Shown: piece by piece, positions 4,766-39,411 of the stretch
How positions within the stretch are numbered: position 1 is the stretch's first letter
Layout: the number at the start of each line of letters is the position of its first letter
Assembly: GCA_020635285.1 (NCBI GenBank)
Contig: JACKAB010000007.1
Location: forward strand, 385,120 to 449,119
Source of the DNA: Ignavibacteriales bacterium
GTDB taxonomy: Bacteria > Bacteroidota > Ignavibacteria > Ignavibacteriales > Melioribacteraceae
Direction of reading: 5' to 3'
Length of the DNA stretch: 64,000 nt
Notes under the pieces: model-generated
What the model was told of the DNA's origin: nothing
What the model saw: the letters and a program-made list of their open reading frames with translations, nothing else
Database searches by the model: none
Position numbers and translations under genes: made by a program

Positions 4766-6220
4766 ACCGGAATATCAAATGAAAAAGTTGTTCCTTTGTT
4801 AGGTGCACTTGTTGTTGAAATTTCAACTTCATGAACTTCCAATATTTTCTTTACAATTGCCAAACCTAAACCCAAGCCCTTGGTCTTTTTTTTTCACTTC
4901 CTTGGTTAAATCTGTCATAAATGTGTGCAATTTCTTCCTCGCTTATTCCAACACCGCTATCAGAAACTTTAACCTTTATGCAGTCATTCTCATTTTTGAG
5001 TTGAACTAAAATCGATCCCCCTTCTGGAGTAAACTTTATTGCATTATCAATTAAATTTTGGAAAACCCGTTCAATCATTGCAATATCTGCAAAAGCTAAA
5101 GGTAAATCTTGTGGAGAATCTAACGTAAGATTAATATTTTTTTTAGATTCAGCTAAAATTAGGGTTCTTGTGTCTTATATCTTGTGCAAGTTCTGAAAGC
5201 TGAAAAGCTTCCAAATTTGGCTTTGTTTCTCTGGCTTCAAGTTTAGAAAGTTCAAATAGTTCCTCAACTAATTTTTTAAGCCGCTCTGTACTATTAAGTA
5301 TAGTTGTCAGATGTACCTTTCGTTCTTCTTCTGTCATAGTTTCACTTTTCATAAGAATAGTTTCGCTATAACCATGAATTGTGGCAAGGGGAGTTCTTAG
5401 ATCATGAGAAACATTTGCAACCAGTTCACGCCTTAAATTATCCATTGTTTTTAGATCTTGCATATTCTGAACAATTGTATCAGCCATTTCATTAAATGAG
5501 TTTGCAAATTCTTTTAGCTCTCCGGTTTGTTTTAAAGTTTATTCTGGCTTCTAAATCACCATTTTTAAATTGACGGATAACTCCAATCATTTTTCTAATG
5601 TTTTTTGTAATTAAAACTAAGGCAATGAAAGTAATAATTATAGCTGCAATAAGTGTAATAGCCGTTGACCGTAATGCCAGTCGGAGCATAAAACTACCGA
5701 ATAAAAATTGTGCAGCACTTTCAAATTCCTCACCGCTAATTATAATATATAAATAACCCCGCAATAAATTTCCTTCGTAAACTTCAGAAGCAGTAAATGT
5801 TGAATGTGCTTTTGGATCTCTGGGATTATTACCCATTACAAATTCTTTGCCTTCCTCAGCAACAAATTTTTTGTATGGGCTCAAGGTCAACGGATTCCAT
5901 TATTATTTTTTTCAGGAGCAAAATAAGTGATAATATTGCCGGTCGTATCCAATAAATAGACTTCCAAACTTGGATTTATAACCATTATTTCATGGAATAA
6001 TTTGTGTAATACTTCTTCATCTATTTCACCATTTGTGAAAAATTTATTTTCATCCACAATATGCGGAGCAATTTGAGATCCCATTTTTTGAACAGCTTCC
6101 TGGTAATACATTTCAGCAGTCCAAACTGCAATATAGAGGTAGACTGCTGACAATATCATTAGAATTGATAGGAAGGTAGATCCAATTTTCCAAGTAAGGG
6201 GTGTTAAAGAAATTCTTCAT
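4705..6220 (-). pseudogene. sensor histidine kinase (TM-sensor-HAMP-HisKA-HATPase), frame broken at least 5 times
   Basis: Fragments 5887..6159 (sensor), 5492..5890 (TM plus HAMP-like), 5149..5487 (HisKA: VSHDLRTPL) and 4866..5078 (HATPase: NLIDNAIKFTPEGG, DSGVGI). Own translation continues to [40 protein letters not shown] with a stop at 4705. ATG at 6220 gives MKNFFNTP, then shifts at a CCCC run into the TM helix. Confidence 0.8.
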
Positions 6221-6334: not shown

Positions 6335-7036
6335 TTAATTCTCTAAAGAATCATTAAACCAATAACCTACACCCCAAGAGGTTCTAATAAATTTGGGATT
6401 TGAAAGGTCATCTTCAATTTTTGTCCTTAACCTATTTATATGAGAATTTACTGTGTGTTCATATCCATTATACTGGTAACCCCAAACAGTATTTAATAGC
6501 TGCTCTCTTGTATATGTTCTTCCGGGATGAGTTGCCATTAGCAGCAGTAAATCAAACTCTTTTTGAGTTAATTCAACTCTTTCACCATTCAAGATTACTC
6601 TTCTTTTTTGTACATCAATTTTAAGATCGCCTACATTAATAATTGTGTTATCAATGTCTGTTTTTTGAACGGCATCCACTCTGCGGAAGATTGCTTTTAC
6701 CCTGGCAATAAATTCTCTGATGCTAAATGGTTTTGTTAAGTAATCATCTGCCCCAATTTCTAATCCAAGAACCTTATCAAATTCCTCAGATTTAGCTGTT
6801 AACATCAAAATTGGCACGTAAATTTCTCTTTTCCTGACTTCTTTGCAGATTTCAATTCCATCTAAATTCGGCAGCATAATGTCTAATACTATTAAATCAA
6901 ATTGCTCATTAATTGCCAAATCTAATCCAACTTTTCCATCATTAGCCTTGGTAACTTGACAATTGAGATCAGTTAAATGAATTTCTAGAAGATCGGAAAT
7001 TTCTTTCTCGTCTTCAATTACTAATACTTTTCGCAT
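6335..7036 (-). CDS. OmpR/PhoB-family response regulator (receiver plus winged-helix)
   Basis: 233 aa. Receiver motifs DLIVLDIMLP and LMLTAK are present, and the C-terminal winged helix ends in TSWGVGYWF. Confidence 0.9.
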   Translation of the reverse strand: MRKVLVIEDEKEISDLLEIHLTDLNCQVTKANDGKVGLDLAINEQFDLIVLDIMLPNLDGIEICKEVRKREIYVPILMLTAKSEEFDKVLGLEIGADDYLTKPFSIREFIARVKAIFRRVDAVQKTDIDNTIINVGDLKIDVQKRRVILNGERVELTQKEFDLLLLMATHPGRTYTREQLLNTVWGYQYNGYEHTVNSHINRLRTKIEDDLSNPKFIRTSWGVGYWFNDSLEN

Positions 7037-7257: not shown

Positions 7258-10200
7258 TTAATCTAAGTAACTTTGAATCGCGTCTTCTATGTTATCAAAA
7301 AGTTTAAATACTTTATCCATTCTAGTTATATAGAACATTGATGATTCGGTATTATCACCCCAAACAATTCTTAAATCGCCACCGAGACTCATTGTTTTTT
7401 TCAAAGAGCTAACTAAAACTCCAAGTACTGTTGAATCAACAAATTCGCATTGAGCTAAATCAATAATCAATTTTGAGTTATGATTCTCAAATAATGCGTT
7501 TAAATATTCTTTAAACTTAGAAGCAATTTCCATTGTTGCTCTTGGCAAGTTAACATTTACAACGCTCACATCTCCATAAAGCAAATGTGAAAATTGAGAG
7601 AATTGAGGCAAGTCTGAATCAAAAGAAGTAAGCTCACTAACAATTGAATTTTTATCAATTTTGTTATTTTCCTTAGTTAATTCTTCTAATTCGAGATCAT
7701 CGTTTTCAGAATGTTCAAAGTCAACTATTTCATCACTATCTGTAATTGGATTTCCAAAAGAGAATGTTGGGATATTTTCTTTTTCATCTGTAAGTTCTTC
7801 AAACTGTTCTTCAGTTGTTATTTCAACTTTAGTTTCTTGGTCAAACGGATTTGTATAAACTTGCATTGGTTCATTATCAACAGTAATATTCTCTGAAACA
7901 TTATTATTTGTGCTGTTATTCTGCGCTTTTAATAGATCAAGCTGCTCTTGAAGCTCAGCAATTTTTACAACTTGGTTTTCAATGATTAAGTTTAATCTTT
8001 CTTCATCAGATTCATTATCTAATGATTGATTGTTAATCATTTCAAGTCTTTGTGAAATAAGTTCAAGCTCTTCATTTTTCTTATTTGCTTCTGTCTTAAA
8101 ATGATTTTTTGCTTCATTTAATTTTTCAATTTCATTTTTAAAATCTTCAATCTGTTCTTTAAGTTTTATGAACTCAATTTCTCTATCAGTTTTTTGAAGT
8201 TTAACTTGTGAAAGCCTTCTTCCTTGCTCTTCTATTATTGAGTTTTTTTCTTCTATTACAGATTCAAAACTTCCTTTTGATTCATTAAGTTTTTCTAGCT
8301 CACTTTGTAATTCTTGTAATTTATCTTCATACTGTTTAGCAACTTCACTGGCAGTATCATCGCCATTAAAATTATTTACACTTGATTGAAGTTCAGCAAT
8401 CAACTCGGATTTATTATTAATCTCAGCTTCAAAAGATTCTTTAACTTCATTAAGTTCTACAACCGTTAATTCAAGAGCTTCGATTTTTTTCTTTAATAAA
8501 ATTGTCGTTTCACTGTCTCCATTTTTTTCTGCATTTAGTTCTTCTTCTAAAGTATCTAGCTTTCTATCTTTTTCAACTAACAGATTTTGTGCTTGCTCTA
8601 ATTGATGTTTTAATTTTTCAACTTCTTCAGAAATTGATTGTATTTGTTCGCTATCTGAATTATTAGAGTTATGAACATCATTTAGTTGATTTTTAAGATT
8701 TTCAATTTGTTCTACAAGCACTGCATTTTCTTCGTGAACATTTTTATTTTCTTCAATTACTACAGAATGTTCTAAAGTTAAATTTTGTAATTTTTCATTA
8801 AAATGTTCATATTGATTGTCAGCTAATTTTTCATTTTCTAATTCTTTTTCAATCTCAGAAATAGTTTGATTTTGTTCTTCAATGATCCTTTTGTTTTTTT
8901 CTAAAGCTTCCTCTTTCTCATTTAATTTTTCTTCAAACTGTTTTATCGTTTCAGCAAGTAAATCTATCTTCTGATCTTTTTCAGAAACATTAGAATTATA
9001 ATTAGAAAGTTTTTGATTTAATTCGGCAATTTGATTTTGAAGTTGTTCTTCAATAGAATTAAATTCTTCAGCTTTTAATTTATAATCATTAAGTTCTGTT
9101 TTAACTTGATTAAATTCATAATAATTATTTGAAATTTGTTTTTGATAAGCTTTTAAGTCTTCGTTTAGATTCTCTATTTCGGAATTAAGTTCTTTCAATT
9201 CAGAATTTTTAGAATCTAAATTATTTCTTAACTCATTTTCAACTGATTCAAATGACTCTAATCTATTATTTCCTTCAGCCAGTTGATTTTTTGCTTCAGT
9301 AACTTTTTCACTTAGCTCATTTATTTGCTGATTTAATTGAGCTTCCCGTGATTTATTTTCTTCAATCGCATTTTTGAATTCTTGAATTTGATTTTCTTTC
9401 TCAACCAGACTATTTTTTAATCTGCTTTCAGATTCTTTCCACAATTCAGAATTATTGCTTGTCTCTTCAAGTTCTTTTTCAACTTCTGAAATATTTTCAC
9501 TTAGTTCATTTATCTGCTGATTTAATTGAGCTTCCCGTGATTTGTTCTCTTCAATAGCATTTTGAAACTCTTGAATTTGATTTTCTTTTTCAGCCAGACT
9601 GTTTTTTAATTCATTTTCTGTTTCAATCCATGATTCTAAATTACTTTTACTTTCTTCAAGCTCATCTTTAACTGCAGCAATTTTTTCATTTAGTTCTTTA
9701 ATTTGTTGATTTAATAATAATTCAACTGAATTTTTATCTTCAAGTTTAATTTTGTAATTATTTAAGTCTGCTTTCAGTGATTCAACTTCTTCAGATTTTC
9801 CTTCAGCTTGATTTTTATAGATATCCAGATCGCTGCTTAAAAATTCAATTTCGGAAAAAACTTTATTATACTCTTTTTCTTTTTCTGATAAACTATTTCT
9901 TAATTCATTTTCAATTTGGTTTAGTCTTTCAATCTCAGCATTCTTTTCTTCAATTTGTTCTTCTTGAAAAGACTCAACTTCATTATGTCCTTTCTGTACT
10001 ATTTCCAGTTGTTCTTCAAGGTATAGAACAGATTTTTGTAATTCTTCAGCTTGACGTGTTTTATCAATAAGGCGCTTTTCAATTTCTGTAGTTTCTATTT
10101 TTAGTTCAGAACTTAATTCTTCGAGAGCTCGTTCTCTTTCCTCTATTGTCTTTTCTAAGATAGATATATGTTTTTTAAGATGAGTTAATTCTGATTCGGT

Positions 10201-13200
10201 CTCTTTTATTATTGATGAAAGATTTTCTTTGTCATCGGAAAGTTCTTCAATTTTAGAACTCAAATTATTTACTATTTCTTTATGCTTTTCAGAGTTTAAT
10301 TGAATTGCTTGGGTTGCTTCATTTAATTTATCGTTTAAATCAATAACTAAATTTTCTTTTTCACTTACTTGATCATGCAGAGTGTTAACTACATTAGAAA
10401 GCTCTTCTGCTTTATTCTTAATTATTTCATTAAGTTCAATTTGTTTGCTAATTTCAGCTTTTTGATTTGAATTAAACTCTACTTGAACTTTTATTTTTGC
10501 TTCAAGGTTCTTTTTCTCATCAGCAATTGATTCAATTTTTGCGCTTAAGTTGTTTATAATTTCTTTGCTCTTTTCTTTACTTTCTTTTAACTCAACTAAA
10601 TTAGATTCCCTTTCACGAATTTGTGTGTTCAAATCTTCAACCAAATTATTTGAGTAATCAACAGTTTCTTTTAACTTATTGATTTCTGTATCACGATTGG
10701 AAATATCTTCTCTTAATTTATCAATTGTGTTTTGGCTACCATCAACAATGATTTTGGTTTGGTTTATTTCATTGTTCAGTTCAGCAATTGAGTTTGTTAA
10801 TGAATTAATGTTTTCATCTTTCAAATCTAATTCAACAGTTAGCCCGTTAATTTGAGTTTGTTTTTCTTTTACATCATTGTTTAATTCATCAATTTGTTTT
10901 TGGTTAATTTCTATTTCAGATTTGAATGAATCGATCAAATTGCTTTTTTCATAAATAATATTATTAAGGCTTTCTACCTTTTCACTTAATGAACTAAGTT
11001 CGTTTTCTTGATCATAATTTTGTTGAGATAAATCATTTATGCGATTGTTTGAATCTTCAATATTTATTTTTAGAGATTCAATTTCAGAAACTTTTTCTTC
11101 AACGCTTAAAATTAATTTTTGTTCTGATTTGGTTCTTTCCAAGAGATCATTTTCCAGTTCAGTGTTTCTTTCAAAAGCCTTTTGATACTCAACTTTGATT
11201 TCTTCTAATTGTTTACTTGTGCCATCTAACTCAACATTTAATGAGTTAATGTTTTGATTTTGATTATTAACTACTTCTTTTAATTCATTTTCAGATGCTC
11301 TTAAGTTTGCAATTTTTAGTTCATCATCCTCTACAGTTTTGCTTAAATCGTTATTTATATTTATTAGTTCGTTAATTTGATTTTCTTTTTGATCTATGTT
11401 TTGTTTATAATTATCAACATCTTGATTAAGCTCTTCAATAACTTGTACTTTTTTAGTTAGTGAATCTATAGTTTCTGAAAGTTTAGTGTTTATGTTTTCT
11501 TTTTCATTATTACTAGCTTCCAACTCTTCTTTAAGTGATGAATTTAATTGTTCAAATTCATTTTTAGTCTTATTTAACTGGTTAATATCATTTTGAAGAG
11601 AATTTATATATTCATCTTTTTGTTCTAGATTTCTTCTTAATTCAAGTTCTTTGCCTTTAGCTTTTTCCAATTCTACGCCAACAGCTTCAACTTTGTTTTC
11701 TAAAGCCGCTATTAAATCTGCATTTTCTGCAAACTTTTGTTCATTTGATTTAAGTTTTTCTAGTAAGTTGTTGATTGAAGAATCTTTTTCAGTTATAAGT
11801 TTAATTTTCTCATCAAGCTGATCTGATAATGGTTTTAGTGCTTCTTCGGCCTCTTTTACCTTCTCGTTTAGATAATAAATATTTTTATTTAATTCGTTAT
11901 TTTCATCTTTAGTAATGGAGAGGTTGTCATTCAATTCAGTAATAAGGTGATCAGCTTCAGTAATTTTATGACTCTGTTTTACTATGATTTCGTCTTTGTC
12001 TTTTGCTGCTTTTTCTAACTCGTTTTTCTTATCTTCTATTACTTTAAAAGCTTGAGTTTGGTCTTCAATTATTTCATTTTTCTTATTAATAGAGTTGTTT
12101 AGTTTTGCCACTTGTGTCGAAAGACTTGAATTTTGCTCCTTTGCTTCTTTGATATTATTCTCATATCTACTTACATCAGCCTTTAGACTTTCAATTAGGT
12201 TACTTTTCGTGTTAATTTCAGCTTCATACTTCGCAACTTGCGTAGTTGCCTCAATTAGTTTAAAATTAAATATTTCCTTTTCTTCATTTAATTTTTCAAT
12301 TAAAGCTTTCGAATCATTTATAATTGCTTCATTCTCTTTGATCTTATCAAATTGTCTATCTATAATATCTTGTTTTTTTGAATCAGATTCTTTTAGGAAG
12401 TTTTCTTTTGCTTTTAATTCATCTAAGTGACTTGATTGTTTTGTAATTATTTCATTTTTATTTGCTTCAGAAATTTTCAATGATTCACTATATTCTTTTA
12501 ATTTTGTGATTTCATCATTCTTTAGCTCTAACTTTGCTCTCACCTCATAATTTTTATTTTCAAGAGATTTTTGAGCATTTAATGCGTTATTATAATTATC
12601 TTTAAGTGTATTTAATTGAGTTTCATAATTAGATACAACATCCTTAAATTTATTTAATTCATTGGTTGATTTTGAATATGAATCTTTCAATTGAGCAAGT
12701 TTATATGATTGTTCCCCAATCAACTCACTTTTATATTTATCTGCTTCTGAAATACTCTTTAATTCATCTTGTAGTTTTTGTAACTCTTTTGATTGTTCGT
12801 CTATTTTATTTTGTTTGATCTTATCATATTTTCCAATACTTTCAAATTTTTCTTCACTTTCACTCAATTTTTTATTTAGTATATTAATAGTTTTGTTCTT
12901 TTCCTCTTCTAGGGTTGAGTAAGAATTCTTAATATAATTTAATTCTTCAAGTTTGGCTTCATTTTGATTAAAATTATTTCGCAACGAACGCAATTCTTCT
13001 TGAAGTATTTTGTTGTTTTTAGAAAGCTCATCTTCTACAAGTTTGCTATTTTTTATCTGTTCTTCATATTCAAATAATTCCTCGGTAGATTTTTTCAAAC
13101 TTTCTTTTAAATTAATTAGTTCAGCTGAATTATTTTCATAATCTTGTTTTAAGTTATTGAATGATTTTTCCTTTGCTCTAAGATGTTCAATTTCATTTGA

Positions 13201-14226
13201 TAATTTTTTAATTTCTACTTTTATTTTTTCATCATCTGCTTTACTAAGATTTGAAGCAGATTTGAGATCATTTATTTGATCTCTAAAATTCTCAATTTCT
13301 ACTTCTGCTATACTTAACTTTTCCTTAAGGTCTTTCTCGCGTGTATTAAGTTCTTCTAATTTATTTTTTAGTGTTTTTATCTCAATTTCTTTTTCTTCAA
13401 AAATGCTCTCATCAATATTCTGAGAACTGTCAATACTTGAAATGGATTGTTCTAATTCAATAATTCTATTATTATGGTTGGTTATTTGTAATTTATAGCT
13501 TTTCTCGGCATCTAATAACCTAGAAAGCTGTTCATTTTGATTGTCAATTACATTATTCATTTGTCTAGTTGTGCTTTGGTATTCTTCAACTCTATTATAA
13601 AGGGAAGTGATCTGCTCTTCTTTTTTTCTGATTAAATCATTGTATCTGACTATTCTATCGTTTAATTCATCAATTACTTTTTCTTTCTTTTTAAGCTCGT
13701 TAAACGAAACTAAATCATCAGCATTTTGATTATTGAGATCAAATATTGATACTTTTTTTTGTCCAGATTCAAATTTAACATTTGCCTCTTTTAGTAATTT
13801 TTCAAGATTTGCCATTATGGTTTCATCAACATTTTCCATTGAGTTTTTTAAATTGCTTAGTATAGAATTGTATTGAACTAGAAGAATATCCATATTTTCT
13901 TTAGAAATTTCAGCAAGTTTTGAGTCCATAATTGATAAAGCAGTAGATTTGCGTTTAGAATTTGCAAAAAATTCTTCTTGTCCAAAAAACTCATTTGGAG
14001 AAATAATAGAAGTAGTGGTTTTAGAAAAGCTGTGTTTTTTTAATAAATTTATTTCACCTTCAATCACTAAATATATTGAATTTGAAGGATCACCATTTTT
14101 GAATAAGATTTCTCCTTCATCCAATTCAATTATTTCTAAATCCAAATCCTCAAGTGTAATATTTGAAATGTTAGTATTTTTAAATAAATCATTACTTTTT
14201 AACACAGTGCTAATGTTGTTTTGCAT
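7258..14226 (-). CDS. giant 2322-aa protein: N-terminal cyclic-nucleotide-binding domain, ~2000-aa coiled coil, C-terminal STAS (anti-sigma-antagonist-like) domain
   Basis: The single ORF is uninterrupted. The N-terminus LFKNGDPSNSIYLVIEGEINLLKK...FFGQEEFF...RKSTALS fits the cNMP-binding beta-roll pattern. About 2000 residues are E/K/N/L/I-rich with heptad character. The C-terminus LIIDLAQCEFVDSTVLGVLVSSLKKTMSLGGDLRIV...ITRMDKVFKLFDNIEDA fits SpoIIAA/STAS, with the DS(T) position conserved. Confidence 0.85.
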   Translation of the reverse strand: MQNNISTVLKSNDLFKNTNISNITLEDLDLEIIELDEGEILFKNGDPSNSIYLVIEGEINLLKKHSFSKTTTSIISPNEFFGQEEFFANSKRKSTALSIMDSKLAEISKENMDILLVQYNSILSNLKNSMENVDETIMANLEKLLKEANVKFESGQKKVSIFDLNNQNADDLVSFNELKKKEKVIDELNDRIVRYNDLIRKKEEQITSLYNRVEEYQSTTRQMNNVIDNQNEQLSRLLDAEKSYKLQITNHNNRIIELEQSISSIDSSQNIDESIFEEKEIEIKTLKNKLEELNTREKDLKEKLSIAEVEIENFRDQINDLKSASNLSKADDEKIKVEIKKLSNEIEHLRAKEKSFNNLKQDYENNSAELINLKESLKKSTEELFEYEEQIKNSKLVEDELSKNNKILQEELRSLRNNFNQNEAKLEELNYIKNSYSTLEEEKNKTINILNKKLSESEEKFESIGKYDKIKQNKIDEQSKELQKLQDELKSISEADKYKSELIGEQSYKLAQLKDSYSKSTNELNKFKDVVSNYETQLNTLKDNYNNALNAQKSLENKNYEVRAKLELKNDEITKLKEYSESLKISEANKNEIITKQSSHLDELKAKENFLKESDSKKQDIIDRQFDKIKENEAIINDSKALIEKLNEEKEIFNFKLIEATTQVAKYEAEINTKSNLIESLKADVSRYENNIKEAKEQNSSLSTQVAKLNNSINKKNEIIEDQTQAFKVIEDKKNELEKAAKDKDEIIVKQSHKITEADHLITELNDNLSITKDENNELNKNIYYLNEKVKEAEEALKPLSDQLDEKIKLITEKDSSINNLLEKLKSNEQKFAENADLIAALENKVEAVGVELEKAKGKELELRRNLEQKDEYINSLQNDINQLNKTKNEFEQLNSSLKEELEASNNEKENINTKLSETIDSLTKKVQVIEELNQDVDNYKQNIDQKENQINELININNDLSKTVEDDELKIANLRASENELKEVVNNQNQNINSLNVELDGTSKQLEEIKVEYQKAFERNTELENDLLERTKSEQKLILSVEEKVSEIESLKINIEDSNNRINDLSQQNYDQENELSSLSEKVESLNNIIYEKSNLIDSFKSEIEINQKQIDELNNDVKEKQTQINGLTVELDLKDENINSLTNSIAELNNEINQTKIIVDGSQNTIDKLREDISNRDTEINKLKETVDYSNNLVEDLNTQIRERESNLVELKESKEKSKEIINNLSAKIESIADEKKNLEAKIKVQVEFNSNQKAEISKQIELNEIIKNKAEELSNVVNTLHDQVSEKENLVIDLNDKLNEATQAIQLNSEKHKEIVNNLSSKIEELSDDKENLSSIIKETESELTHLKKHISILEKTIEERERALEELSSELKIETTEIEKRLIDKTRQAEELQKSVLYLEEQLEIVQKGHNEVESFQEEQIEEKNAEIERLNQIENELRNSLSEKEKEYNKVFSEIEFLSSDLDIYKNQAEGKSEEVESLKADLNNYKIKLEDKNSVELLLNQQIKELNEKIAAVKDELEESKSNLESWIETENELKNSLAEKENQIQEFQNAIEENKSREAQLNQQINELSENISEVEKELEETSNNSELWKESESRLKNSLVEKENQIQEFKNAIEENKSREAQLNQQINELSEKVTEAKNQLAEGNNRLESFESVENELRNNLDSKNSELKELNSEIENLNEDLKAYQKQISNNYYEFNQVKTELNDYKLKAEEFNSIEEQLQNQIAELNQKLSNYNSNVSEKDQKIDLLAETIKQFEEKLNEKEEALEKNKRIIEEQNQTISEIEKELENEKLADNQYEHFNEKLQNLTLEHSVVIEENKNVHEENAVLVEQIENLKNQLNDVHNSNNSDSEQIQSISEEVEKLKHQLEQAQNLLVEKDRKLDTLEEELNAEKNGDSETTILLKKKIEALELTVVELNEVKESFEAEINNKSELIAELQSSVNNFNGDDTASEVAKQYEDKLQELQSELEKLNESKGSFESVIEEKNSIIEEQGRRLSQVKLQKTDREIEFIKLKEQIEDFKNEIEKLNEAKNHFKTEANKKNEELELISQRLEMINNQSLDNESDEERLNLIIENQVVKIAELQEQLDLLKAQNNSTNNNVSENITVDNEPMQVYTNPFDQETKVEITTEEQFEELTDEKENIPTFSFGNPITDSDEIVDFEHSENDDLELEELTKENNKIDKNSIVSELTSFDSDLPQFSQFSHLLYGDVSVVNVNLPRATMEIASKFKEYLNALFENHNSKLIIDLAQCEFVDSTVLGVLVSSLKKTMSLGGDLRIVWGDNTESSMFYITRMDKVFKLFDNIEDAIQSYLD
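9240..9720 (-). repeat. in-gene 189-bp (63-aa) tandem repeat within the coiled-coil gene
   Basis: The stretch ttttcacttag(c/t)tcatttat(t/c)tgctgatttaattgagcttcccgtgattt... recurs with a 189-nt offset (9309 versus 9498). The protein units are NSLAEKENQIQEFQNAIEENKSREAQLNQQINELSE... and NSLVEKENQIQEFKNAIEENKSREAQLNQQINELSE..., with diverged flanking copies. Confidence 0.8.
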
Positions 14227-14524
14227 TTCCTCGTCCTCTTGAACTTTCTAGATTAAATTATTATCGAGCAGTTTAGATTTTTTTTTAATTTTGTTTAAAT
14301 TTCCTCACTGATACTTTTAATTTCAAATATTGTGCCGTAAAACGTAAAAAGTGGTAATTTTTACTTGCTGTTTTTGTAGATTTTCATTCACAACCTTGAT
14401 GCTTAAAAACTGTTAGATTTGCAATGAAAATCAATTTGGTAATATAAAAATCCATATAGATGCAAATACAACTATATCTGGTGGTTTTATAATTCCCGAT
14501 TAATGTAACAATATGATACAGAAC

Positions 14525-14538
14525 GTGATCTGTGTCAC
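14525..14538. promoter_or_regulatory. CRP/FNR-like palindrome GTGA-N6-TCAC in the divergent intergenic region
   Basis: cGTGAtctgtgTCACt lies at 14525-14538. It overlaps a second palindrome, ACAGAacgtgaTCTGT (14516-14531). The site sits between the cNMP-domain giant gene and the cytochrome cluster. Confidence 0.25.
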
Positions 14539-14686
14539 TATTATAAGAATTCCTTATTTGTAACTCTGGCTAAAAATAGCCAAATAGGTGTTGAGGCATT
14601 TTGTTGTTATAATAAAATACTTTTGCTAATTTACACTAAGCTTTATAGCCTAAATTATTTTTTCAACTAAAATTGAGAAATTTGCT

Positions 14687-15576
14687 ATGAATAAACTTGT
14701 GCATAAATTTTATATTGGTTTTTTTATAGTTGTTACCATTTCTGTTTTGGTTTTGTTAATTATAAACGGATACTCTTATTATACTTCGCCATTTGAAGAA
14801 CGCTTTTTTTACCTAACCACAATTCATTAAAACCAAGTGGATTTATTGGTCATGGAATAGGAATTATAGGTTCATTTGTTAATGATTTTTGGAGTTTTAA
14901 TTTATATGATTAGAAAAAGAGTTAAATTTTTATGCGCTTAGGAATTTTAAACATTGGCTTGAACTGCATATTTTTTTTGCACTGTTGGACCAATTTTAGT
15001 TCTATTTCACACTGCTTTTTTAAGTTTGGTGGAATTGTTTCTGTTAGTTTTTGGAGTATGGTTGCAGTTTTTTTAGTGGAATTATTGGAAGATTTATTTA
15101 TGTTCGCATCCCTCGTACAATTGAAGGAAATGAAATGAATATGCAGCAAATAAATAATCTCAATGATAATCTTACAATAAATCTGGCTACAAATTATAAT
15201 TTACAAAAATACAACTTTAGAAAAAATTGCTGAACTATCTGATATTAAAAGTAAAGGAAGAGGTTCATTTAAATGAATTGTTTTTATCTCTGATTCCAAA
15301 TTATTTTGAAAAAGGAAAAAAATAAATACTATCAATTTCAGCATTAAAATTAAAAGCAAATAATATTTCTAAAACAAATAGAAAAGAAATTATTAAGATT
15401 ATAAAAAAAAAATCAGTACTTCAAATAAAATACATTATCTTCGTTTGATGCAAAGTTTGTTTAAATATTGGCATGTCGCACATTTACCGTTTGCTTTAAT
15501 TATGCTTATAATAATGTTTATTCACATTGTTGTTACTATTACTTTTGGTTATAGGTGGGATTTTTTAAATGCTTAA
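14687..15576 (+). pseudogene. polytopic membrane protein with conserved His residues (possible b-haem or ferric-reductase-like anchor), heavily frameshifted
   Basis: Stitched from several frames: MNKLVHKFYIGFFIVVTISVLVLLIINGYSYY ... KPSGFIGHGIGIIGSFVMIFGVLIYMIRKR ... LGILKHWLELHIFLCTVGPILVLFHTAFKFGGIVSVSFWSMVAVF..GIIGRFIYVRIPRT ... YWHVAHLPFALIMLIIMFIHIVVTITFGYRWDF. At least 5 frame changes, mostly at A/T runs. Confidence 0.45.
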
Positions 15577-15734
15577 AAATGAGAATAATTGTTCGATATT
15601 TTAATACTACATGTATTAATTACATGTAATATTGTGATACTATATTATAAATTGTGTTTATAGACCAAGTACTATCAATATTTTTAGTTTGGTATATAAA
15701 TTGATGGACTATCTTATTAATTATTTTTAGGTAA

Positions 15735-17091
15735 ATGGATTGGAAGTATTAATTGAATATATTTTTTACAGTTTTAGTAGTTATTATCTTAATTGCAATA
15801 GTCCTTTTTGCTTACTACAGTAAACATAAAAAGCAATCTCAAGTATAACTACCCGTAAAATTGATAAAGCAAAAGAATTTGGATTTCATGAACCAGTTTC
15901 ACTTCACCCTGTGATTAATGAAGATATTTGCATTGGAAGTGCTGCATGTGTAGCAGCTTGTCCAGAAAATGATATTTTAGGTCTTAGTTGGTGGAAAAGG
16001 TAGACTTGATTAATGCTTCACATTGTATATAGGGCATGGCGCTTGTTTTCATGCATGTCCTGTTGAGGCTATAACATTAGTAATGGGAACAGAAAAACGT
16101 GGTGTTGAATTACCTCATGTTAGTCAAGATTATGAAACAAACGTTAAAGGTATTTACATTGCTGGAGAATTAGGCGGAATGGGTCTAATTAAAAATGCTG
16201 TTGAACAAGGCACAAAAGCAATGGAAAAGCATTCTCAAAAATCCTTCCCAAAAAATAAAAAAGTAAATATGATGTAATTATAATTGGTGCAGGTCCAGCT
16301 GGAATTGCTGCATACTTTAACTGCGGCAAAAAACAATCTAAAATTTTTAACACTTGAACAAGATAGCTTGGGAGGAACTGTTTTTACATTTCCAAGAGCT
16401 AAAAAATTGTTATGACTTCACCAATGGAATTGCCATTATACGGCAAAAGTAAAACTACAAGAAACTTCAAAATCTGAATTACTTGATTTATGGAATGAAG
16501 TTTTATCAAAGAATAATATTACAATAAATCAAAATTTGAAAAAGTTTTGGAGATAATTAAATACCAAGATTATTTTGAGATAATTACAAATCAAGAAAAA
16601 TATACTTGTTCTAAAGTTTTACTCTCTATCGGTAGAAGAGGTTCTCCAAGAAAATTAGGAGTTCCAGGCGAAGATACAGAGAAAGTTGCCTATCGTCTAT
16701 TAGAGCCAGAATTAATTAAAAATAAAAAGGTAATTGTTGTTGGTGGTGGAGATTCAGCAATAGAATCAGCCCTATTATTGGCTGAGGATGAAACAAATCA
16801 AGTTACACTTTCGTATAGATCTAATTCATTTTTTAATAGAATAAAACCAAAGAATCTAGAAAAAATTGAACTAGCAAAAAATCAAAATAAGATAAATGTT
16901 AATTTATGAATCGAACTTAGTTGAAATAAATGAAAGTTGATGTAAAAATGAAATTAAAAAATGGAAGTATTGTTCCAATAGAAAATGATTTAGTTTACAT
17001 TTTTGCTGGAGGAGAACTACCAAATAAATTTCTTGATAAAATTGGCATTAAGATTACGAAGAAATATGGAGAGGTGGTATTAAAACATTAA
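15735..17091 (+). pseudogene. TM-anchored 4Fe-4S ferredoxin domain plus FAD/NAD(P)-dependent (thioredoxin-reductase-like) oxidoreductase, heavily frameshifted
   Basis: Stitched translation: CIGSAACVAACPENDIL ... CIGHGACFHACPVEAI (two CxxxCP-containing Fe-S motifs, each preceded by an upstream Cys), YDVIIIGAGPAGIAA (dinucleotide fold), KVIVVGGGDSAIESALLL (second fold), FAGGELPNKFL. ORFs 16023..16277 and 16547..16909 are fragments. At least 6 frame changes. Confidence 0.6.
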
Positions 17092-18665
17092 TCAAAATAT
17101 TATTTCTGTCATTAATATTTATAGATGTTTTAAAAGCTCAAATTTCACCCGGCGATTTGAGTAATGCTCATGCAGAATTTGAAGGAATTAGTAATTGTAC
17201 AAAATGTCATGACTTAGGGAAATCAGTTTCAAAAGCAAAATGCTTAAACTGCCATACAGAAATAATTGATTTAATAAACGAAAATAGAGGTTATCACCTA
17301 CAAAAAGAAGTAATTCAAAAAGATTGCTGGGTTTGTCACGGGGAACATTTTGGAAGAAATTTTCAAATAGTAAAATTTGATGAAAAGAATTTTGATCATG
17401 ATAAAAGTGGATTTGAACTAAAAGGAAGTCATAAAAAGTTAGAATGTAATAAATGTCATAAAGCCGAATTTATCACAATAGAAAAATTTAAGAAAAAAGA
17501 AAAAACATTTATAGGCTTAACTCCGCAATGCAAAACCTGTCACGAAGATGTTCATCAAGGAACTCTTGATGACAATTGTGCAACTTGCCACAATGAAGAA
17601 AAATTTAAACCCGCAATTAATTTTAAACATGATAACACACAGTTCAAGCTTACGGGAACTCACTTAAAAGTAGATTGTGAAAAATGTCATGTTAAGGAGA
17701 ATAGAAATAACAAAACGTTTCAAAAATTTGCTGATGTAAAATTTAATAGTTGCAATTCGTGTCATAAAGATTTTCACCAGGGTAAATTTGGTAATGAATG
17801 TGAAACTTGTCACAATACAAATTCATTTAATGAAGTAAATGTTTTAAATGGATTTGATCATTCCAAAACTAATTTTCCCTTATTGGGTAAGCACAATAGA
17901 GTTAAATGCGAAAATTGTCATAAAGAAAGTTTAACAAGTAAACCTAAATTTGCTAAATGTTATGATTGTCATGAAGATTTTCATAAAGGTGAATTTATTA
18001 AAAATAATATTCAGACAGACTGCAAAGAATGCCATAATGAAAAAGGCTTTTCACCTTCTCAGTTTACAATTGAAATGCATAACAAAACCAGTTTTGAATT
18101 GATAAATTCCCATGCAGCAATTCCTTGTATATCGTGTCACTTAAAAGAAGAAAGTTGGAAATTTAGAATCAGTGGCGAAAAATGTATCTCATGCCATTCA
18201 AACATCCATGAAAGTGAAATTGGCGCAGATTTTTTTGATGAAAATAATTGTCAATTTTGTCACTCAACATTATCTTGGAAAAATGTAAAGTTTGATCATA
18301 CCACGACCGAGTTTGAGTTAATAGGCAAACATAAATCAACGGAATGCAGAGATTGTCATTTCACTTTTGATGGATCAAAAATAATTGCTCAAAAATTTAA
18401 GCAACTAAATAGTAATTGTACACAATGTCACAATGATATTCATATTGGACAATTTATTGAGGATGGAAAAGAGCTTTGCAAAAACTGTCATACTTCATTT
18501 AATTGGCAGCCAAGTTTATTCGATCATAGTAAAACAAGATTTGCATTAGCTGGTGCACATCTAAATGTAAAATGTGAACAATGCCATAAACAAATTGTTG
18601 AAAATGATATTACTTTTATCAAATATAAAATTGAGGATGTAAGATGCATAAGTTGTCATTCTTAA
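17079..18665 (+). CDS. multihaem c-type cytochrome, 20 CxxCH motifs
   Basis: I counted 20 CxxCH motifs in ORF 17157..18665 (CTKCH, CLNCH, CWVCH ... CEQCH, CISCH), with recurring F.H......L.G.H....C..CH units. A signal-like segment KTLIKILFLSLIFIDVLKAQ is in frame upstream back to 17079 with no in-frame ATG. An ATG at 17066 is one base out of frame, so the true start is uncertain. Confidence 0.85.
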   Translation: MKTLIKILFLSLIFIDVLKAQISPGDLSNAHAEFEGISNCTKCHDLGKSVSKAKCLNCHTEIIDLINENRGYHLQKEVIQKDCWVCHGEHFGRNFQIVKFDEKNFDHDKSGFELKGSHKKLECNKCHKAEFITIEKFKKKEKTFIGLTPQCKTCHEDVHQGTLDDNCATCHNEEKFKPAINFKHDNTQFKLTGTHLKVDCEKCHVKENRNNKTFQKFADVKFNSCNSCHKDFHQGKFGNECETCHNTNSFNEVNVLNGFDHSKTNFPLLGKHNRVKCENCHKESLTSKPKFAKCYDCHEDFHKGEFIKNNIQTDCKECHNEKGFSPSQFTIEMHNKTSFELINSHAAIPCISCHLKEESWKFRISGEKCISCHSNIHESEIGADFFDENNCQFCHSTLSWKNVKFDHTTTEFELIGKHKSTECRDCHFTFDGSKIIAQKFKQLNSNCTQCHNDIHIGQFIEDGKELCKNCHTSFNWQPSLFDHSKTRFALAGAHLNVKCEQCHKQIVENDITFIKYKIEDVRCISCHS

Positions 18666-21600
18666 TATTTACATTTTTCATATCCTCATTGATATTTTCT
18701 CAATCTCCCCATGGAGATAACTTTAACTTTGATTGCGAGGAATGTCATTCAACTGAAAACTGGAAAATAGATTTTAAAACTTTAGATTTTGATCATTCCG
18801 AAACTAACTTTGAATTAATTGGTCAACATAAAATATTAGATTGTCAATCATGCCACCAAACATTAAAGTTTTCAGAAACAAAAAATAATTGTCTTGATTG
18901 TCACAGTAATGTTCATCAAAATACAGTTGAACCTAATTGCCAGCAATGTCATAACTCAAACTCTTGGGTTGTTACTAATATTGATGAAATGCATGATATG
19001 AGCAGATTTCCTTTGCTGGGTGAACACAAACGTGCTGATTGCAAACAATGCCATGCATCTGTTAATAATTTGTTGTTTCCCACTATTGGGGTTCAATGTA
19101 TTGATTGTCATTTGAGTGATTATCAGTCAGCACAAAATCCAAATCATATTTCTGCCGGTTTTTCAAAAGAGTGCGAAGATTGTCATCAAGTAACTGATTT
19201 AGAATGGAATAAGGCAAATGTTACTCACGACTTTTTCCCTTTAAACGGTGGTCATAAAATCAGCAATTGTTTTGATTGTCATTCACAAAATACTTTTGAG
19301 GGATTAACTCAAGAATGTGTAACGTGTCATCAGAAAGATTTTAATTCCACCAGTGATCCAAATCATGTTAGCGCTGGATTTACAACTAATTGTATTGAAT
19401 GCCACACAACTAATCCGGGTTGGCAGCCTGCATCATTTAAGGAACATGATAATTTCTTCGCTCTAATTGGCGCGCATAAAGTAATTGAAAATGATTGTGC
19501 AAAATGTCATACAACCGGCTATTCTAATACACCGGATCAATGCTATGATTGTCATCAATCAAATTATAATAGCACAAAAGATCCTGCACATCAAGCAGCG
19601 GGATTTGGAACTGATTGTGAGAGTTGTCATAATACAGTAGCTTGGGAGCCAGCAAGTTTTGACCACGATAATCAATTTTTCCCAATTTATTCTGGCAAAC
19701 ATAATAACCAATGGAATGATTGTGCAGATTGCCATACTAATTCAGCAAACTTCCAAGTTTTTGCGTGTGTTACGTGTCATGAACATAATCAGTCAGATAT
19801 GGATAAAGAGCATAGTGGAATTGGAGGATATACTTATGAAAGCACAGCTTGCCTTGCTTGTCATCCAACCGGAAATAAAGAAGATGGATTTAATCATTCA
19901 ACAACTAATTTCCCATTGCTTGGTGCTCATACAACTATTCAATGTTCTGATTGTCATTCTGCTGGATATCAAGGAACATCAATGGAATGTAGTTCTTGCC
20001 ATTTAGCTGATTTTCAAAGTTCTACCAATCCAAATCACCAACAAATTGGTTTAGATCAAAATTGTGAACAGTGCCATACAACTAATCCAGATTGGCAGCC
20101 GGCAACTTTTCCAGTTCATAATGATTTTTATTTATTAGAAGGCGCTCATGCAAGTATAGCCAGCGATTGTAATAGTTGTCATTCAGGTGATTACGTGAAT
20201 ACAGGTAATCTTTGTATTGATTGCCATACCAATGATTATAACAATACCAGCAATCCCAACCATCAATCAACTGGTTTTGGAACAGATTGTGAAACTTGTC
20301 ATTCTCAAAATGCTTGGCAGCCTGCAACCTTTGATCATGATAATCAGTTCTTCCCAATATACTCGGGCAAGCACAATAATGAATGGAATGAATGTTCAGA
20401 CTGCCATACTGCATCAACAAATTTTCAAGTTTTTGAGTGTATTAACTGTCATGAACATAATAAAACAGATACAGATGATAAGCATAAAGAAGTTCAAGGT
20501 TATCAATATATCAGCACAGAATGTTTAGCATGTCACCCAACAGGAACATCAGATGGCGCTTTTAATCATGCTACTTCGGCTTTCCCATTAACAGGCGCGC
20601 ACACAACTCAAGAATGTTCAGATTGTCATCAAGGTGGATATTCTAATGTCTCATCGGAGTGTTCTGAATGCCATCAGCAAGATTTTAATAGTTCTCTTGA
20701 ACCAAACCATGTTGAAGCAGGAATTGAAATTGCTTGTGTAGATTGTCACAATACTGTGGCTTGGAAACCTTCAACATTCAATCATGAAACAACCGGCTTT
20801 GAATTGATTGGAGGACACAATTTGAATCAATGTTCTAATTGTCACTCAGGAAGCACATCAAATGCTACATCAATTTGTTATGATTGTCATCAAAGCGATT
20901 ATACAACGGCACCTGAACATACTGCACAAAGTTATCCGCAAACTTGTCAGGATTGTCATAATACAACAAATTGGAATCAAACAACTTTTGATCATAATAA
21001 CACTAACTTTGCATTAACAGGAGCTCATTTAAATACAACTTGCGCTTCTTGTCATACATCTGGATATGCTGGAACTTCTACAGAATGCAATACTTGTCAT
21101 CAGACAGATTTTACAAGCGCGGTTAATCCAAATCATTCGGAAGCTGGAATTTCAAATAAGTGTGAAGATTGCCATTCTACAAATGCTTGGAATCCATCTG
21201 AATTTAATCATTCAGCGACCGGATTTGAGTTAATTGGAGGACATAATTTATCTCAATGTTCAAGCTGTCACAATGTAAGCACAGCAAATGCAACTCCAGA
21301 ATGTTACTCTTGTCATTCTGCAAATTATAGCAACGCACCAGATCATGTTTCACAGAATTATCCAAAGACATGTCAAGATTGTCATAACACCACAAATTGG
21401 AATGACACAAACTTTGATCATAACAATACAAATTTTGCATTAACCGGTTCTCACACTAACGTGAATTGCAATGATTGTCATTCAGCTGGATACTCTGGTA
21501 CTTCTACTGTTTGTGCTGATTGCCACCTTACTGATTTTAACAATTCATCAAATCCAAATCATAGCAGTTTAAGTCTATCAACAAATTGTGAAACTTGTCA

Positions 21601-23737: not shown

Positions 23738-24512
23738 ATACTTATTTCACCTTCCAAATAAAGAGCTGCATTGCCGGAAATTTTTACTCTTTTATCCAAA
23801 TATTCACAGAACAATTCACCGCCTCTTTTAGAAACTTGTAAAGCATTGAGTTTTGTTTTATTCAATCTTTTAGCCCAATAAGGAATTAACAAAGTGTGAG
23901 CATAGCCGGTAACTGGGTCTTCATCAATACCAACATCTGGTGCAAAAAATCGTGAAACAAAATCTACATCATTTCCTTGTGATGTAATTATTACTCCATG
24001 TGTGTTTAGTTTTAAAAAATCTTTTATTTGAGGTTTTAATTTCCTAACAATTTCTTCATTCTCAAAAACACAAATAGTTGATTTGTCGAATAAAATTTCA
24101 CTTGGTTTAACTCCTAATGCTGCGATTAAAATCTCATCAAACTCAATTGGCTTGGGATTTCTTGCCGGAAAATTTAAACTGATTAATTCATTTTCCTTCG
24201 TTACAATTAATTTGCCGCTTCTTGAGTTAAACTCAATTTTGTTTTCTGTAAAATTCAAAATATTGAATAATACAAATGAAGATGCCAGCGTGGCATGACC
24301 ACATAAATCAACTTCGCTGGTTGGCGTGAACCATCTAATTCTATAACCAGAGTCTTCCAAAACAAAAAAGCAGTTTCGGCTAAATTATTTTCTGCAGCAA
24401 TGTTTTGCATCACCAAATCATTCAACCAATTTTCTAAAGGAACAACTGCTGCGGGATTTCCGTTAAAAATATTTTTTGTAAATGCATCTACTTGGTAAAG
24501 TTTTAATTTCAT
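23734..24512 (-). pseudogene. PhzF-family isomerase-like protein, one frameshift
   Basis: ORF 24255..24512 (MKLKLYQVDAFT..FNGNPAAVV...AAENNLAETAF) and ORF 23734..24360 (IRWFTPTSEVDLCGHATLAS...) together make a full-length PhzF-like protein. The frames overlap around 24300. Confidence 0.75.
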
Positions 24513-38824: not shown

Positions 38825-39411
38825 AGTTTGCGGAATTACAAATATTGAAGATGCTATACTTTGCTATAATCTCGGAGCGGATGCTATCGGATTTATATTT
38901 TACGAAAAAAGTAAAAGATATATCAAACCTGAAGAGGCCAAAATAATTATTAGTGAATTACCCGCATTTATTTTAAAAGTTGGAGTATTTGTAAATGAAA
39001 CTCCACAACTAATAAATGAAGTGGCAAAAGACATAAAACTAAATGCAGTTCAATTACACGGTGATGAAACACCTCAAGATATTGATAATATTGATTTGCC
39101 CGTAATTAAAGCTTTTAGAGTTGAGTTGATGATGAATTTGATTATGATGTTCTAACTCAATATAAAAATGTACTTTTCTCTTAGATACTTTTAATAAGAA
39201 TGAATTTGGCGGCACCGGAGAAAAATTTAATTGGAATAAAATTCCCAAAGAAATAAAAAGTAAAATAATTCTTGCTGGCGGAGTATCAATTGAAAACTTA
39301 GAAAATATTTACAAGCAGATTAATCCAGCTGCTATTGATGTTTCTTCATCATTAGAAATAATACCCGGTAAAAAAGACAAAAAGAAAGTTGAATTATTTT
39401 TAAAAAATTAA
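38814..39411 (+). CDS. trpF: phosphoribosylanthranilate isomerase, about 2 frameshifts (39125-39180)
   Basis: [10 protein letters not shown]...GADAIGFIF...KSKRYI...VQLHGDE, then after frame changes LLDTFNKNEFGGTGEKFNWNKIP...ILAGGVSIENL...IDVSSSLE. Confidence 0.8.

Follow-up and report, generated by a model that had tools for sequence, protein, structure and literature searches.

Giant coiled-coil proteins headed by a cyclic-nucleotide-binding domain and ending in a STAS domain in Ignavibacteriales and related uncultured bacteria

The window, as we call the whole stretch of DNA analyzed here, comprises 64,000 nucleotides (nt) of contig JACKAB010000007.1 (positions 385,120 to 449,119; assembly GCA_020635285.1) from an Ignavibacteriales bacterium of the Melioribacteraceae. 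Its reverse strand carries a giant gene coding for a protein of 2322 amino acids (aa), in which a cyclic-nucleotide-binding (CNB) domain at the N-terminus and a STAS domain at the C-terminus are separated by a very long predicted coiled-coil rod. Using profile searches, structure prediction and comparative genomics we show that this protein belongs to an undescribed family of the Ignavibacteriales/Melioribacteraceae and related uncultured bacteria. Loci of its relatives are referred to by L numbers, and short members of the family mostly by P numbers.

The giant gene and the parts of its product

The gene and the parts of the protein that it encodes are as follows:

7258..14226, minus strand: complete gene with an ATG start, 2322 codons plus stop, with the Shine-Dalgarno-like stretch GAGGACGAGG upstream
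13777..14226, minus strand: CNB domain with the helices that follow it, residues 1-150 (Pfam PF00027)
13876-14127, minus strand: Pfam core of the CNB domain, residues 34-117 (PF00027)
13936..13989, minus strand: phosphate-binding cassette FFGQEEFFANSKRKSTAL, residues 80-97, aligned to the regulatory subunit of PKA (PKA-R)
13702..13767, minus strand: non-helical connector between CNB domain and rod, residues 154-175, with a conserved QKK.SIF.L motif (AlphaFold2 (AF2) model and alignment)
7924..13701, minus strand: coiled-coil rod, residues 176 to ~2101, about 1,900 heptad residues (periodicity and register model)
11941..12738, minus strand: five in-phase copies of the rod motif [KN]-E-I-I-x-x-Q-[ST]-x-K-[IL], at residues 497, 588, 616, 714 and 742
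9305..9715, minus strand: 189-nt unit repeated in tandem (2.2 copies, 81% identical) and coding for 63 aa or exactly 9 heptads, residues 1504-1641
8107..8286, minus strand: conserved island in the rod, residues 1981-2040 (..EEKNSIIEEQGRRLSQVKLQKTDREIEFIKLKEQ..), column identity 44-49% against ~20% in the flanking rod
7582..7923, minus strand: acidic, proline-containing, variable linker, residues ~2102-2215 (composition and alignment)
7261..7581, minus strand: STAS domain of the SpoIIAA/RsbV anti-sigma-antagonist type, residues 2216-2322 (Pfam, AF2, Foldseek)
7432..7434, minus strand: codon of Ser2265 in the DST motif (D2264-S2265-T2266), at the start of STAS helix 2

Across 7258..14226 the longest open reading frame (ORF) in the other five frames is 111 aa, and the region has 26% G+C with a strong AT skew. 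Orthologs of the gene begin with the same MQN... N-terminus. The protein is rich in glutamate (16.5%), asparagine (11.8%), lysine (11.3%), leucine (11.2%), serine (8.7%) and isoleucine (8.3%) and has just nine prolines, with only one between residues 150 and 2085. It is cytoplasmic: no signal peptide or membrane segment was found in it and both end domains are of cytoplasmic type, so that the comparison of its length with the thickness of the cell envelope, drawn in an earlier reading of the window's bare sequence (hereafter the original prediction), is beside the point.

The N-terminal domain matches the Pfam profile PF00027 well above threshold (E 5.5e-14; 52.4 bits against a gathering cut-off of 27.5; profile positions 3-87 of 89), as do its orthologs with similar scores, and its sequence matches in the PDB are Crp/Fnr regulators and the regulatory domains of PKA and PKG (1e-8 to 1e-9), bearing out the CNB domain proposed for this end. 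Its column identity among orthologs is about 60-64%. The phosphate-binding cassette aligns with that of PKA-R, FGELALMYGTPRAASV, with Arg92 and Thr95 kept as partners of the R and S of the PKA-R cassette; Arg92 is also invariant in a broader alignment of relatives, and the pattern FFGQ[ED]EF....R[KV]STA is invariant in all eight of the full-length giant proteins aligned, the window's included. In such cassettes the Glu of the FGE motif contacts the ribose 2'-OH and the Arg contacts the cyclic phosphate. The residue after Arg92 is Lys or Val, and a preference for cAMP or cGMP is therefore unreadable from the sequence. As in CRP, the CNB domain is directly followed by helices, the would-be dimer interface; unlike CRP/FNR and PKA-R, with which its CNB domain shares a family, the giant protein has no DNA-binding or kinase-binding output. 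An AF2 model of the N-terminal 260 aa is confident only for a continuous helix from residue 169 onwards (predicted local distance difference test, pLDDT, >85), with no helix at residues 154-168, in the connector.

The same CNB subfamily (MENQL..LLKNADIS..NDFFGHEEFF..SRTSTAVAL) also heads proteins of 771-871 aa, in which a long linker of acidic low-complexity sequence leads on to a GAF domain and a histidine kinase (L040, L046, L048, L051-L061, L063, L066, L067, L069, L070 and L073; e.g. L051:10001-12316). These proteins appear to represent a second output for the same sensor module, which supports the CNB domain as a true input module.

Between the two ends the hydrophobic pattern (residues 151-2085) has Fourier peaks at 3.50, 2.33 and 7.0 residues, and the power in the 3.5-residue band lies at z ~32 relative to 500 shuffles; the heptads claimed in the original prediction thus withstand a formal analysis. 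A register model (a home-made heuristic Viterbi procedure, not COILS) places residues 176-2067 in heptads with 7 register breaks and a longest unbroken run of 966 residues (353-1318), and beyond these, helical sequence of heptad-like character that includes a conserved motif continues to about residue 2101. Hence, of the roughly 2000 heptad-rich residues that had been proposed to lie between the end domains about 1,900 stand, while the last ~115 before the STAS domain are a non-heptad linker. Position a is occupied by Ile (35%), Leu (26%) and Val (10%), position d by Leu (39%), and positions e and g are rich in K/E/N/Q; the rod has a net charge of about -155 per chain and a single proline. The pairs of residues at g and e' comprise 37 attractive and 16 repulsive combinations, against 27 and 26 in shuffles (z ~+/-2.4). 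From the beta-branched residues at a and Leu at d, the excess of attractive g-e' pairs, the one-sided tandem duplication and the lack of a loop at the rod midpoint we infer a parallel, in-register pairing of two chains. With a rise of 0.1485 nm per residue the rod would then measure ~280 nm, if it is a continuous two-stranded coil.

These same features bear on an alternative in which the chain folds back, in the manner of SMC and Rad50, into an antiparallel intramolecular coil of ~140 nm, so that the CNB domain meets the STAS domain and a cyclic nucleotide monophosphate (cNMP) gates the latter directly. Joined ends would be a simple logic for a two-domain sensor, and the best similarities in NCBIfam are to the coiled-coil arms of SMC/Rad50 proteins. 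However, the unbroken heptad run 353-1318 crosses the midpoint of the rod with no loop, the asymmetry of Ile/Val at a and Leu at d is consistent with parallel chains, as is the surplus of salt bridges between g and e', and both the one-sided 63-aa duplication and the large length differences between orthologs would unbalance a hairpin, all of which makes this fold-back improbable. An outright SMC/Rad50 identity was rejected: the best match reaches 218 bits against a cut-off of 567 and covers coiled-coil arms only, and neither an ATPase head nor a hinge is present.

The recurrent rod motif takes the wider form [KN]-E-[IL]-[IL]-x-x-Q-[ST]-x-K-[IL]-x-E-L, with the Gln always at heptad position d. 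Its copies cluster within residues 497-762, with others at window positions ~8260 and ~7960, and each giant protein holds 4-10 of them against 1-2 in shuffles; orthologous sites occur in the giants of L002, L005, L009, L011, L012 and L014 and in the short members P0022 and P0057. The spacing of the five clustered copies (91, 28, 98 and 28 residues) suggests an old duplication of 126 residues (18 heptads). Judging from the 189-nt tandem repeat, rods lengthen by in-phase tandem duplication. The glutamines of the motif may form buried polar layers that hold a homodimer of 2,000-residue chains in register or, alternatively, mark repeated docking sites.

At the C-terminus, residues 2234-2316 match the Pfam STAS profile (E 7.4e-10; 39 bits against a cut-off of 22.6), and the domain scores 40.9 bits with the NCBIfam anti-anti-sigma model TIGR00377, below its cut-off of 53.45. 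An AF2 model of the domain from a 56-sequence alignment has a pLDDT of 91.8, and its top Foldseek matches are all anti-sigma antagonists, namely TM1081, SpoIIAA bound to SpoIIAB, TM1442, a mycobacterial antagonist and RsbV, with template modeling scores of 0.77-0.82 and ranks ahead of the STAS domains of SLC26 transporters. Both terminal domains thus lie above their Pfam cut-offs, and the STAS domain was recovered by a fold search as well. The segment 'FVDSTVL' (7423-7443) holds the DST motif, which aligns with the phospho-serine motif 'MDSAGLG' of TM1442; Ser2265 lies at the N-terminus of model helix 63-78, directly after an invariant Asp, and is itself invariant in all relatives, while column identity of the domain across orthologs is 57-82%. 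The serine at this position is the one phosphorylated in SpoIIAA and RsbV, and we take it to be equivalent in location to SpoIIAA Ser58. The SpoIIAA-type STAS domain with a conserved DST site, also part of the original prediction, accordingly holds.

The order of parts in the giant protein, sensor, helical linker and STAS domain, is that of proteins such as YtvA and RsbR, and YtvA is among the weaker structural matches of the STAS domain (rank 50). The giant could on this account be a stretched version of such a protein, with the cNMP signal travelling mechanically along the coil. However, the rod is parted from the STAS domain by the ~115-residue linker, which is variable, acidic, non-helical and proline-containing (segment 2068-2215 has 38 D/E, 8 K/R and five of the protein's nine prolines) and is probably a disordered tether; rod length is not conserved, ranging from ~500 to ~2,100 residues; and transmission across 280 nm is physically implausible. 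Since the tether lies between rod and STAS domain, rigid or allosteric transmission from the CNB domain is unlikely, and we hold this account to be very improbable.

Relatives and their conserved gene-neighborhoods

Scanning one genome for each GTDB species with motifs as a guide, we recovered 13 loci, 11 of them titled as metagenome-assembled genomes (MAGs) of Ignavibacteriales, Ignavibacteriae or Melioribacteraceae and two as 'Bacteroidetes bacterium' or 'bacterium', and a metagenome scan seeded with the CNB alignment added 67 further loci. Among these are about 14 intact giant orthologs of 1769-2504 aa, from Ignavibacteriales/Melioribacteraceae MAGs and metagenomes, and the gene is thus neither absent nor fragmented throughout its relatives:

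Intact giants with the MQN...CNB start and STAS end: L002 (2313 aa), L005 (2177 aa), L008 (1769 aa), L011 (2504 aa), L012 (2389 aa)
Intact giant on a complete 4.55-Mb chromosome: L009 (2445 aa)
Further intact giants: L014 (2214 aa), L022 (2181 aa), L023 (2080 aa), L024 (2207 aa), L026 (2040 aa), L028 (2320 aa), L029 (2317 aa)
Short family members: P0022, P0027, P0036, P0049, P0051, P0055, P0057, P0087, L031

The copies in L001, L003 and L007 are split into 2-4 ORFs, with break points that differ among near-identical sequences (L001 and L007 are 96-99% identical), and we read these as assembly errors. That some 14 orthologs are intact despite an overall identity to the window protein of only 27-47% and an AT-rich rod argues for selection on the gene, as do the far stronger conservation of the ends (column identity 57-82%) than of most of the rod (10-30%) and the invariance of Arg92 and Ser2265. 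An exhaustive search with the STAS profile also recovered the short members, proteins of 750-1250 aa with the same succession of CNB domain, coiled coil, acidic linker and STAS domain. Rod length thus varies three- to four-fold across the family; for L008, L009 and the short forms it was taken from domain boundaries, the register model under-calling the rod in these. Directly after the CNB-coiled-coil-STAS gene, L018 (3803-4513) and L036 (3060-3713) have a second CNB-headed ORF, interrupted by the contig end, which suggests tandem paralogs.

While the single modules are known, their combination is not: full-text searches of the literature found no description of a CNB/coiled-coil/STAS architecture or of giant coiled-coil proteins in Ignavibacteria, no family in Pfam or NCBIfam spans the whole giant protein, and an exact-sequence lookup of the 2322-aa protein found no record. 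When a collection of 5.8 billion proteins was queried with the two ends of the protein, the family turned up solely as fragments of up to 403 aa, labeled 'CRP-like cAMP-binding protein' or 'anti-anti-sigma factor' by one source; gene catalogs systematically contain too few giant coiled-coil genes of this kind, or contain them in pieces. Partner switches with STAS domains and coiled-coil-rich proteins are well studied, each separately. To our knowledge, the STAS switch proteins described so far are small and soluble, and we know of no bacterial coiled-coil scaffold with sensor domains at both ends. A review of STAS proteins names only transporters and one glycosyltransferase fusion as multidomain proteins (PMC8256260).

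The gene-neighborhoods of the relatives proved to contain a recurrent signaling block. Three genes come after the giant gene in L002, L003 and L005-L008, encoding a PAS-HisKA-HATPase histidine kinase, a sigma54-type response regulator (460 aa, 80-92% identical among loci) and a receiver-PP2C phosphatase of the SpoIIE family (380 aa). L001 has the same order up to the contig end (the kinase and the beginning of another gene), L009 has the block without the kinase, and in L022-L024, L026 and L049 a screen with home-made hidden Markov models found the sigma54 regulator and the PP2C gene downstream of the giant gene; L022-L088 were screened solely for PP2C, sigma54, STAS and CNB domains. Around the short forms the order is [kinase], sigma54 regulator, a stand-alone STAS protein (112 aa), the CNB-coiled-coil-STAS gene and a receiver(-receiver)-PP2C gene (L016 and L019); in L015 the phosphatase gene stands ahead of the CNB-coiled-coil-STAS gene, and on the short contigs of L018, L033, L036, L039, L043 and L044 the stand-alone STAS gene, sometimes with the sigma54 regulator, lies upstream of it. 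Between the blocks beside giants and those beside short forms the sigma54 regulators are 65-68%, the receiver-PP2C proteins 48-52% and the kinases 37% identical, by which measure the blocks are evidently orthologous across both deep branches of the family. The stand-alone and fused STAS domains are 43-48% identical and share the motif CEF[IV]DST, marking the former as a paralog of the latter.

In all, the block is present at least in part in ~22 of ~38 informative loci; the receiver-PP2C gene adjoins the family gene in at least 15 related loci, and about seven more, on cut-off contigs, have other parts of the block. The original prediction had found no partner-switching kinase or phosphatase genes nearby. 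This holds for the window, where tblastn with the relatives' receiver-PP2C proteins gave matches at the level of the receiver only, and where no SpoIIE- or RsbW-type domain was detected in the ~31 ORFs scanned (the giant ORF, the OmpR-type regulator, the ORFs of at least 110 aa within 26.7-62.9 kb and two others; those at 1-7 kb and 14-26 kb mostly not scanned). Downstream of the giant gene the window codes for a regulator of the OmpR type (6335-7036) and, with frameshifts, for a histidine kinase (4902-6159); these match the block at the level of generic domains only. For the relatives the claim fails, and the idea of partner switching is strengthened by the receiver-PP2C and sigma54 two-component genes beside the family gene. 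The absence of the block from the window looks like a local rearrangement rather than a property of the family. Scans of both flanks of the giant gene for consensus promoters and terminators gave nothing above shuffled expectation. The 500 nt upstream of the gene, examined in the window and in 17 related loci, contained no TGG-N9-TGC sigma54 element; nothing obvious thus marks the gene as a target of the neighboring sigma54 regulator.

A proposed scaffold-borne STAS switch and its rivals

Taken together, we favor, with a probability of roughly one-half, the proposal that these proteins carry the STAS switch of a two-component-controlled partner-switching module on a scaffold, with an extra cNMP input. 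A parallel, in-register pair of chains would form the ~280-nm rod, one end of which would bear a pair of cNMP sensors and the other a pair of tethered STAS domains. The working output would come from the STAS domain, with Ser2265 toggling between a phosphorylated and an unphosphorylated state; its role as a phospho-switch is suggested by the invariant serine, the anti-sigma-antagonist fold and the receiver-PP2C neighbor in relatives. That phosphatase would strip the phosphate from Ser2265 under the control of the adjacent PAS histidine kinase, in parallel to the sigma54 response regulator, with a logic akin to that of SypF/SypG/SypE/SypA or HptB/HsbR/HsbA, and the phosphorylation state of the STAS domain would select its binding partner. 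The rod would serve as a scaffold or spacer, possibly self-assembling, that sets the cellular site of the switch, and cNMP at the far end would be a second input, most plausibly on assembly or localization. In the genome of the window a rearrangement would have parted the gene from the kinase and phosphatase block. The picture drawn in the original prediction, an extended rod whose ends respond to signals, is a fair one, given that both ends are conserved, the heptads are strong and the orthologs are intact.

Several observations weigh against this proposal. First, about 16 of the 38 loci lack the block within 10 kb, including the window and a whole clade of giants (L010-L014, L028 and L029):

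Loci without the block within 10 kb: window, L004, L010-L014, L017, L020, L021, L028-L031, L037, L038

Where the kinase gene does follow the giant gene, the gaps between them, 250-550 nt, do not show co-transcription, and synteny inside a single bacterial order may be due in part to common descent and not to function. Second, no RsbW/SpoIIAB-type kinase was found among the ~31 window ORFs, selected neighbors in the genome loci and the annotations of L015-L021 (L022-L088 not being screened for it), leaving phosphorylation of the STAS serine putative; such a kinase could be encoded at another place in the genome. Third, the canonical Glu of the cassette, present in CRP/FNR and PKA-R, is replaced by Gln83 in all giants and by His (FFGH) in the short forms, so that cyclic-nucleotide binding is not assured, yet plausible; Epac1 carries Gln at the same position and binds cAMP. 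Fourth, the CNB domain itself has a pLDDT <50 in the AF2 model built from an 8-sequence alignment and is unusable there, and the parallel geometry of the dimer rests on sequence statistics and the home-made register model, not on a structure.

The loci without the block also favor a rival account, in which the protein is mainly a structural, intermediate-filament-like element of the cytoskeleton, as are crescentin, FilP and Scy, with ends that tune assembly and a merely incidental link to PP2C. Like those proteins and Ccrp it consists mostly of a long cytoplasmic coiled-coil rod, which is very long, regular and highly charged and has weak, sub-threshold similarity to the tropomyosin (19.1 bits against a cut-off of 38.6) and crescentin (Rod_CreS, 17.7 against 100) rod profiles; moreover, the three- to four-fold variation in rod length fits a building block better than a precise device. 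However, it is the ends that are conserved and not the rod, the PP2C/sigma54 block occurs in both deep branches with differing gene orders, and the charge of the rod disfavors simple lateral self-association without counter-ions or partners. Crescentin is ~430 aa and Scy ~1,300 aa in total; the giant rod is longer than either, with its ~1,900 residues in near-continuous canonical heptads, and crescentin, FilP and Scy lack the globular signaling domains that the giant has at both ends. On balance we regard a chiefly structural role as possible but unlikely. A further, doubtful reading is that of a new kind of regulated cytoskeletal or positioning element, a parallel coiled-coil 'ruler' of 0.1-0.3 micrometre, about the width of a cell, whose assembly (e.g. 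by head-to-tail contacts of CNB and STAS domains) or position would be gated by cNMP at one end and whose tethered STAS domains would capture or release a partner depending on their phosphorylation; partner switching would then be spatial, through sequestration on the scaffold, and not a matter of stoichiometry alone, with the stand-alone STAS protein as a soluble competitor.

The preferred scaffold-borne switch can be set beside several known systems. The STAS domain of the giant has the same fold as SpoIIAA, RsbV, TM1081 and TM1442 and the same serine, in the form D-S-[ST], at the start of helix 2, and a PP2C gene of the SpoIIE family, as in the SpoIIAA/RsbV circuits, is a conserved neighbor in its relatives. 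In contrast, SpoIIAA and RsbV are single-domain proteins, whereas here the domain is the tail of a 2322-aa protein and hangs by an acidic tether from a rod of ~280 nm; and neither the RsbW/SpoIIAB-type kinase nor the anti-sigma factor of those circuits was found in the loci examined. A second parallel is offered by receiver-controlled circuits, of which the SypF/RscS kinase, the sigma54-dependent regulator SypG, and HsbR, whose domain make-up includes an RsbW-like kinase domain, are parts. In Vibrio fischeri the receiver protein SypE, which also has kinase and PP2C domains, works alongside SypG and controls SypA, a STAS protein, through its phosphorylation (PMC3610818); the phosphorylation state that this receiver-controlled enzyme imposes on SypA takes effect at a stage downstream of SypG and of transcription (PMC3610818; PMC4517449), and HptB-HsbR-HsbA of Pseudomonas form a similar circuit (PMC5085249, PMC6482189). 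The likeness is that the kinase, the sigma54-type regulator, the receiver-PP2C protein and one or more STAS proteins are encoded side by side in the relatives, though not in the window. However, SypE and HsbR carry an RsbW-like kinase domain while the relatives' receiver-PP2C proteins (380 aa and 520 aa) comprise Response_reg and SpoIIE domains only, one STAS domain of the present family shares its chain with a CNB domain and a giant coiled coil, and no polysaccharide locus accompanies it. The nearest known example of a sensor on a rod is provided by FrzS and AglZ of Myxococcus, cytoplasmic proteins with a receiver domain and a long coiled coil. No sequence relationship of these to the giant protein was detected; the latter has a CNB input in place of a receiver, a rod several times longer and a C-terminal STAS domain.

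In this family a second-messenger sensor and a phosphorylatable STAS output occur in one protein, joined by a heptad rod that ranks among the longest and most regular of those predicted in bacteria, and synteny ties the family to a cassette of histidine kinase, sigma54 regulator and PP2C phosphatase. Were the proposal true, partner switching would be organized spatially on a scaffold, and rods of ~500 to ~2,100 heptad residues would form a natural series in which to ask if length matters. The proteins are also a natural test-bed for how very long homodimeric coils keep their register, for which the polar layers of conserved Gln at position d are a candidate. Automatic annotation would label such a protein just 'CRP-like cAMP-binding protein', or mistake it for an SMC protein, and long-read MAGs often split its gene.

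The multiheme cytochrome cluster and the rest of the window

On its upstream side the giant gene faces a divergent cluster:

14227..14686, no strand: divergent intergenic region of 460 nt, between the giant gene and a frameshifted 291-aa-type gene

From 14687 onwards the cluster comprises a frameshifted homolog of a 291-aa gene of L003, a frameshifted Fer4/pyridine-nucleotide oxidoreductase gene (15740-17088) and two multiheme cytochrome genes on the plus strand (17157-18665 and 18644-22123; 502 and 1159 aa with 20 and 46 CxxCH motifs), the shorter product being 72% identical to a cytochrome of L003. A 527-aa ORF with no Pfam match (22154-23737) follows the cytochromes.

The 460-nt gap and the divergent layout, which recurs in L003, are as given in the original prediction and could be taken to mean that the giant protein is functionally coupled to the cytochromes, e.g. 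as a scaffold for extracellular-electron-transfer machinery. However, among ~38 loci the arrangement is shared only by L003 and, at a distance of ~10 kb, by L022, and scans of the 460-nt region turned up neither a conserved nor a sigma54-type element, nor were promoter-like sites in excess there; the functional link through a shared control region suggested earlier is thus not borne out. Gene order points the same way. In L009 and L024 the upstream neighbors of the giant gene are a MarC-like gene and an RpoD-like sigma-70 gene, the latter 2-5 kb away (L009:329-1186, L024:4883-5740); in the window both lie on the same side but 12 and 19.5 kb off (RpoD-like gene at 33773-34633, plus strand; 95-96% identical across the three), and the segment at 14.7-26 kb with the cytochromes therefore looks inserted. 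As a family property, coupling to the cytochromes was rejected; as a property of the window gene we give it next to no credence, and the association is probably incidental.

The frameshifts in the window, among which the uninterrupted giant ORF had been remarked upon, are real but clustered (e.g. 14687-17088 and 4902-6159), and since ORFs of 1159, 1412 and 1130 aa are intact as well, the intactness of the giant ORF alone is unremarkable. The frameshift-like breaks are grouped in particular genes, those for the histidine kinase (4902-6159), the 291-aa-type protein (14687-15564), the Fer4/Pyr_redox oxidoreductase (15740-17088, with at least four frame changes within 1.35 kb), PhzF-like (23734-24512) and decarboxylase-like (24828-26011) proteins, both named by eye rather than by profile search, and trpC/trpF (38032-39155), while the ORFs of 1130-2322 aa are unbroken. 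Homopolymers of A or T (runs of 6 or more) are not rarer in the giant gene (4.0/kb) than elsewhere (3.5/kb). The breaks may be assembly errors or pseudogenes.

Elsewhere in the window a 1412-aa ORF (26716-30954, minus strand) matches no Pfam profile at E 1e-5 or below and is without a homolog in the fetched loci, and the 527-aa ORF beside it (30963-32546, minus strand) has a partial aminotransferase match only. The segment 43629-56139 (plus strand) codes for proteins with CotH-kinase and lamin-tail domains, some with C-terminal sorting domains of the type IX secretion system, interleaved with the polyphosphate-related VTC, DUF4956 and PPK2 genes; in L021 a similar CotH-LTD-Por_Secre_tail gene and a DUF4956 gene adjoin a short member of the family.

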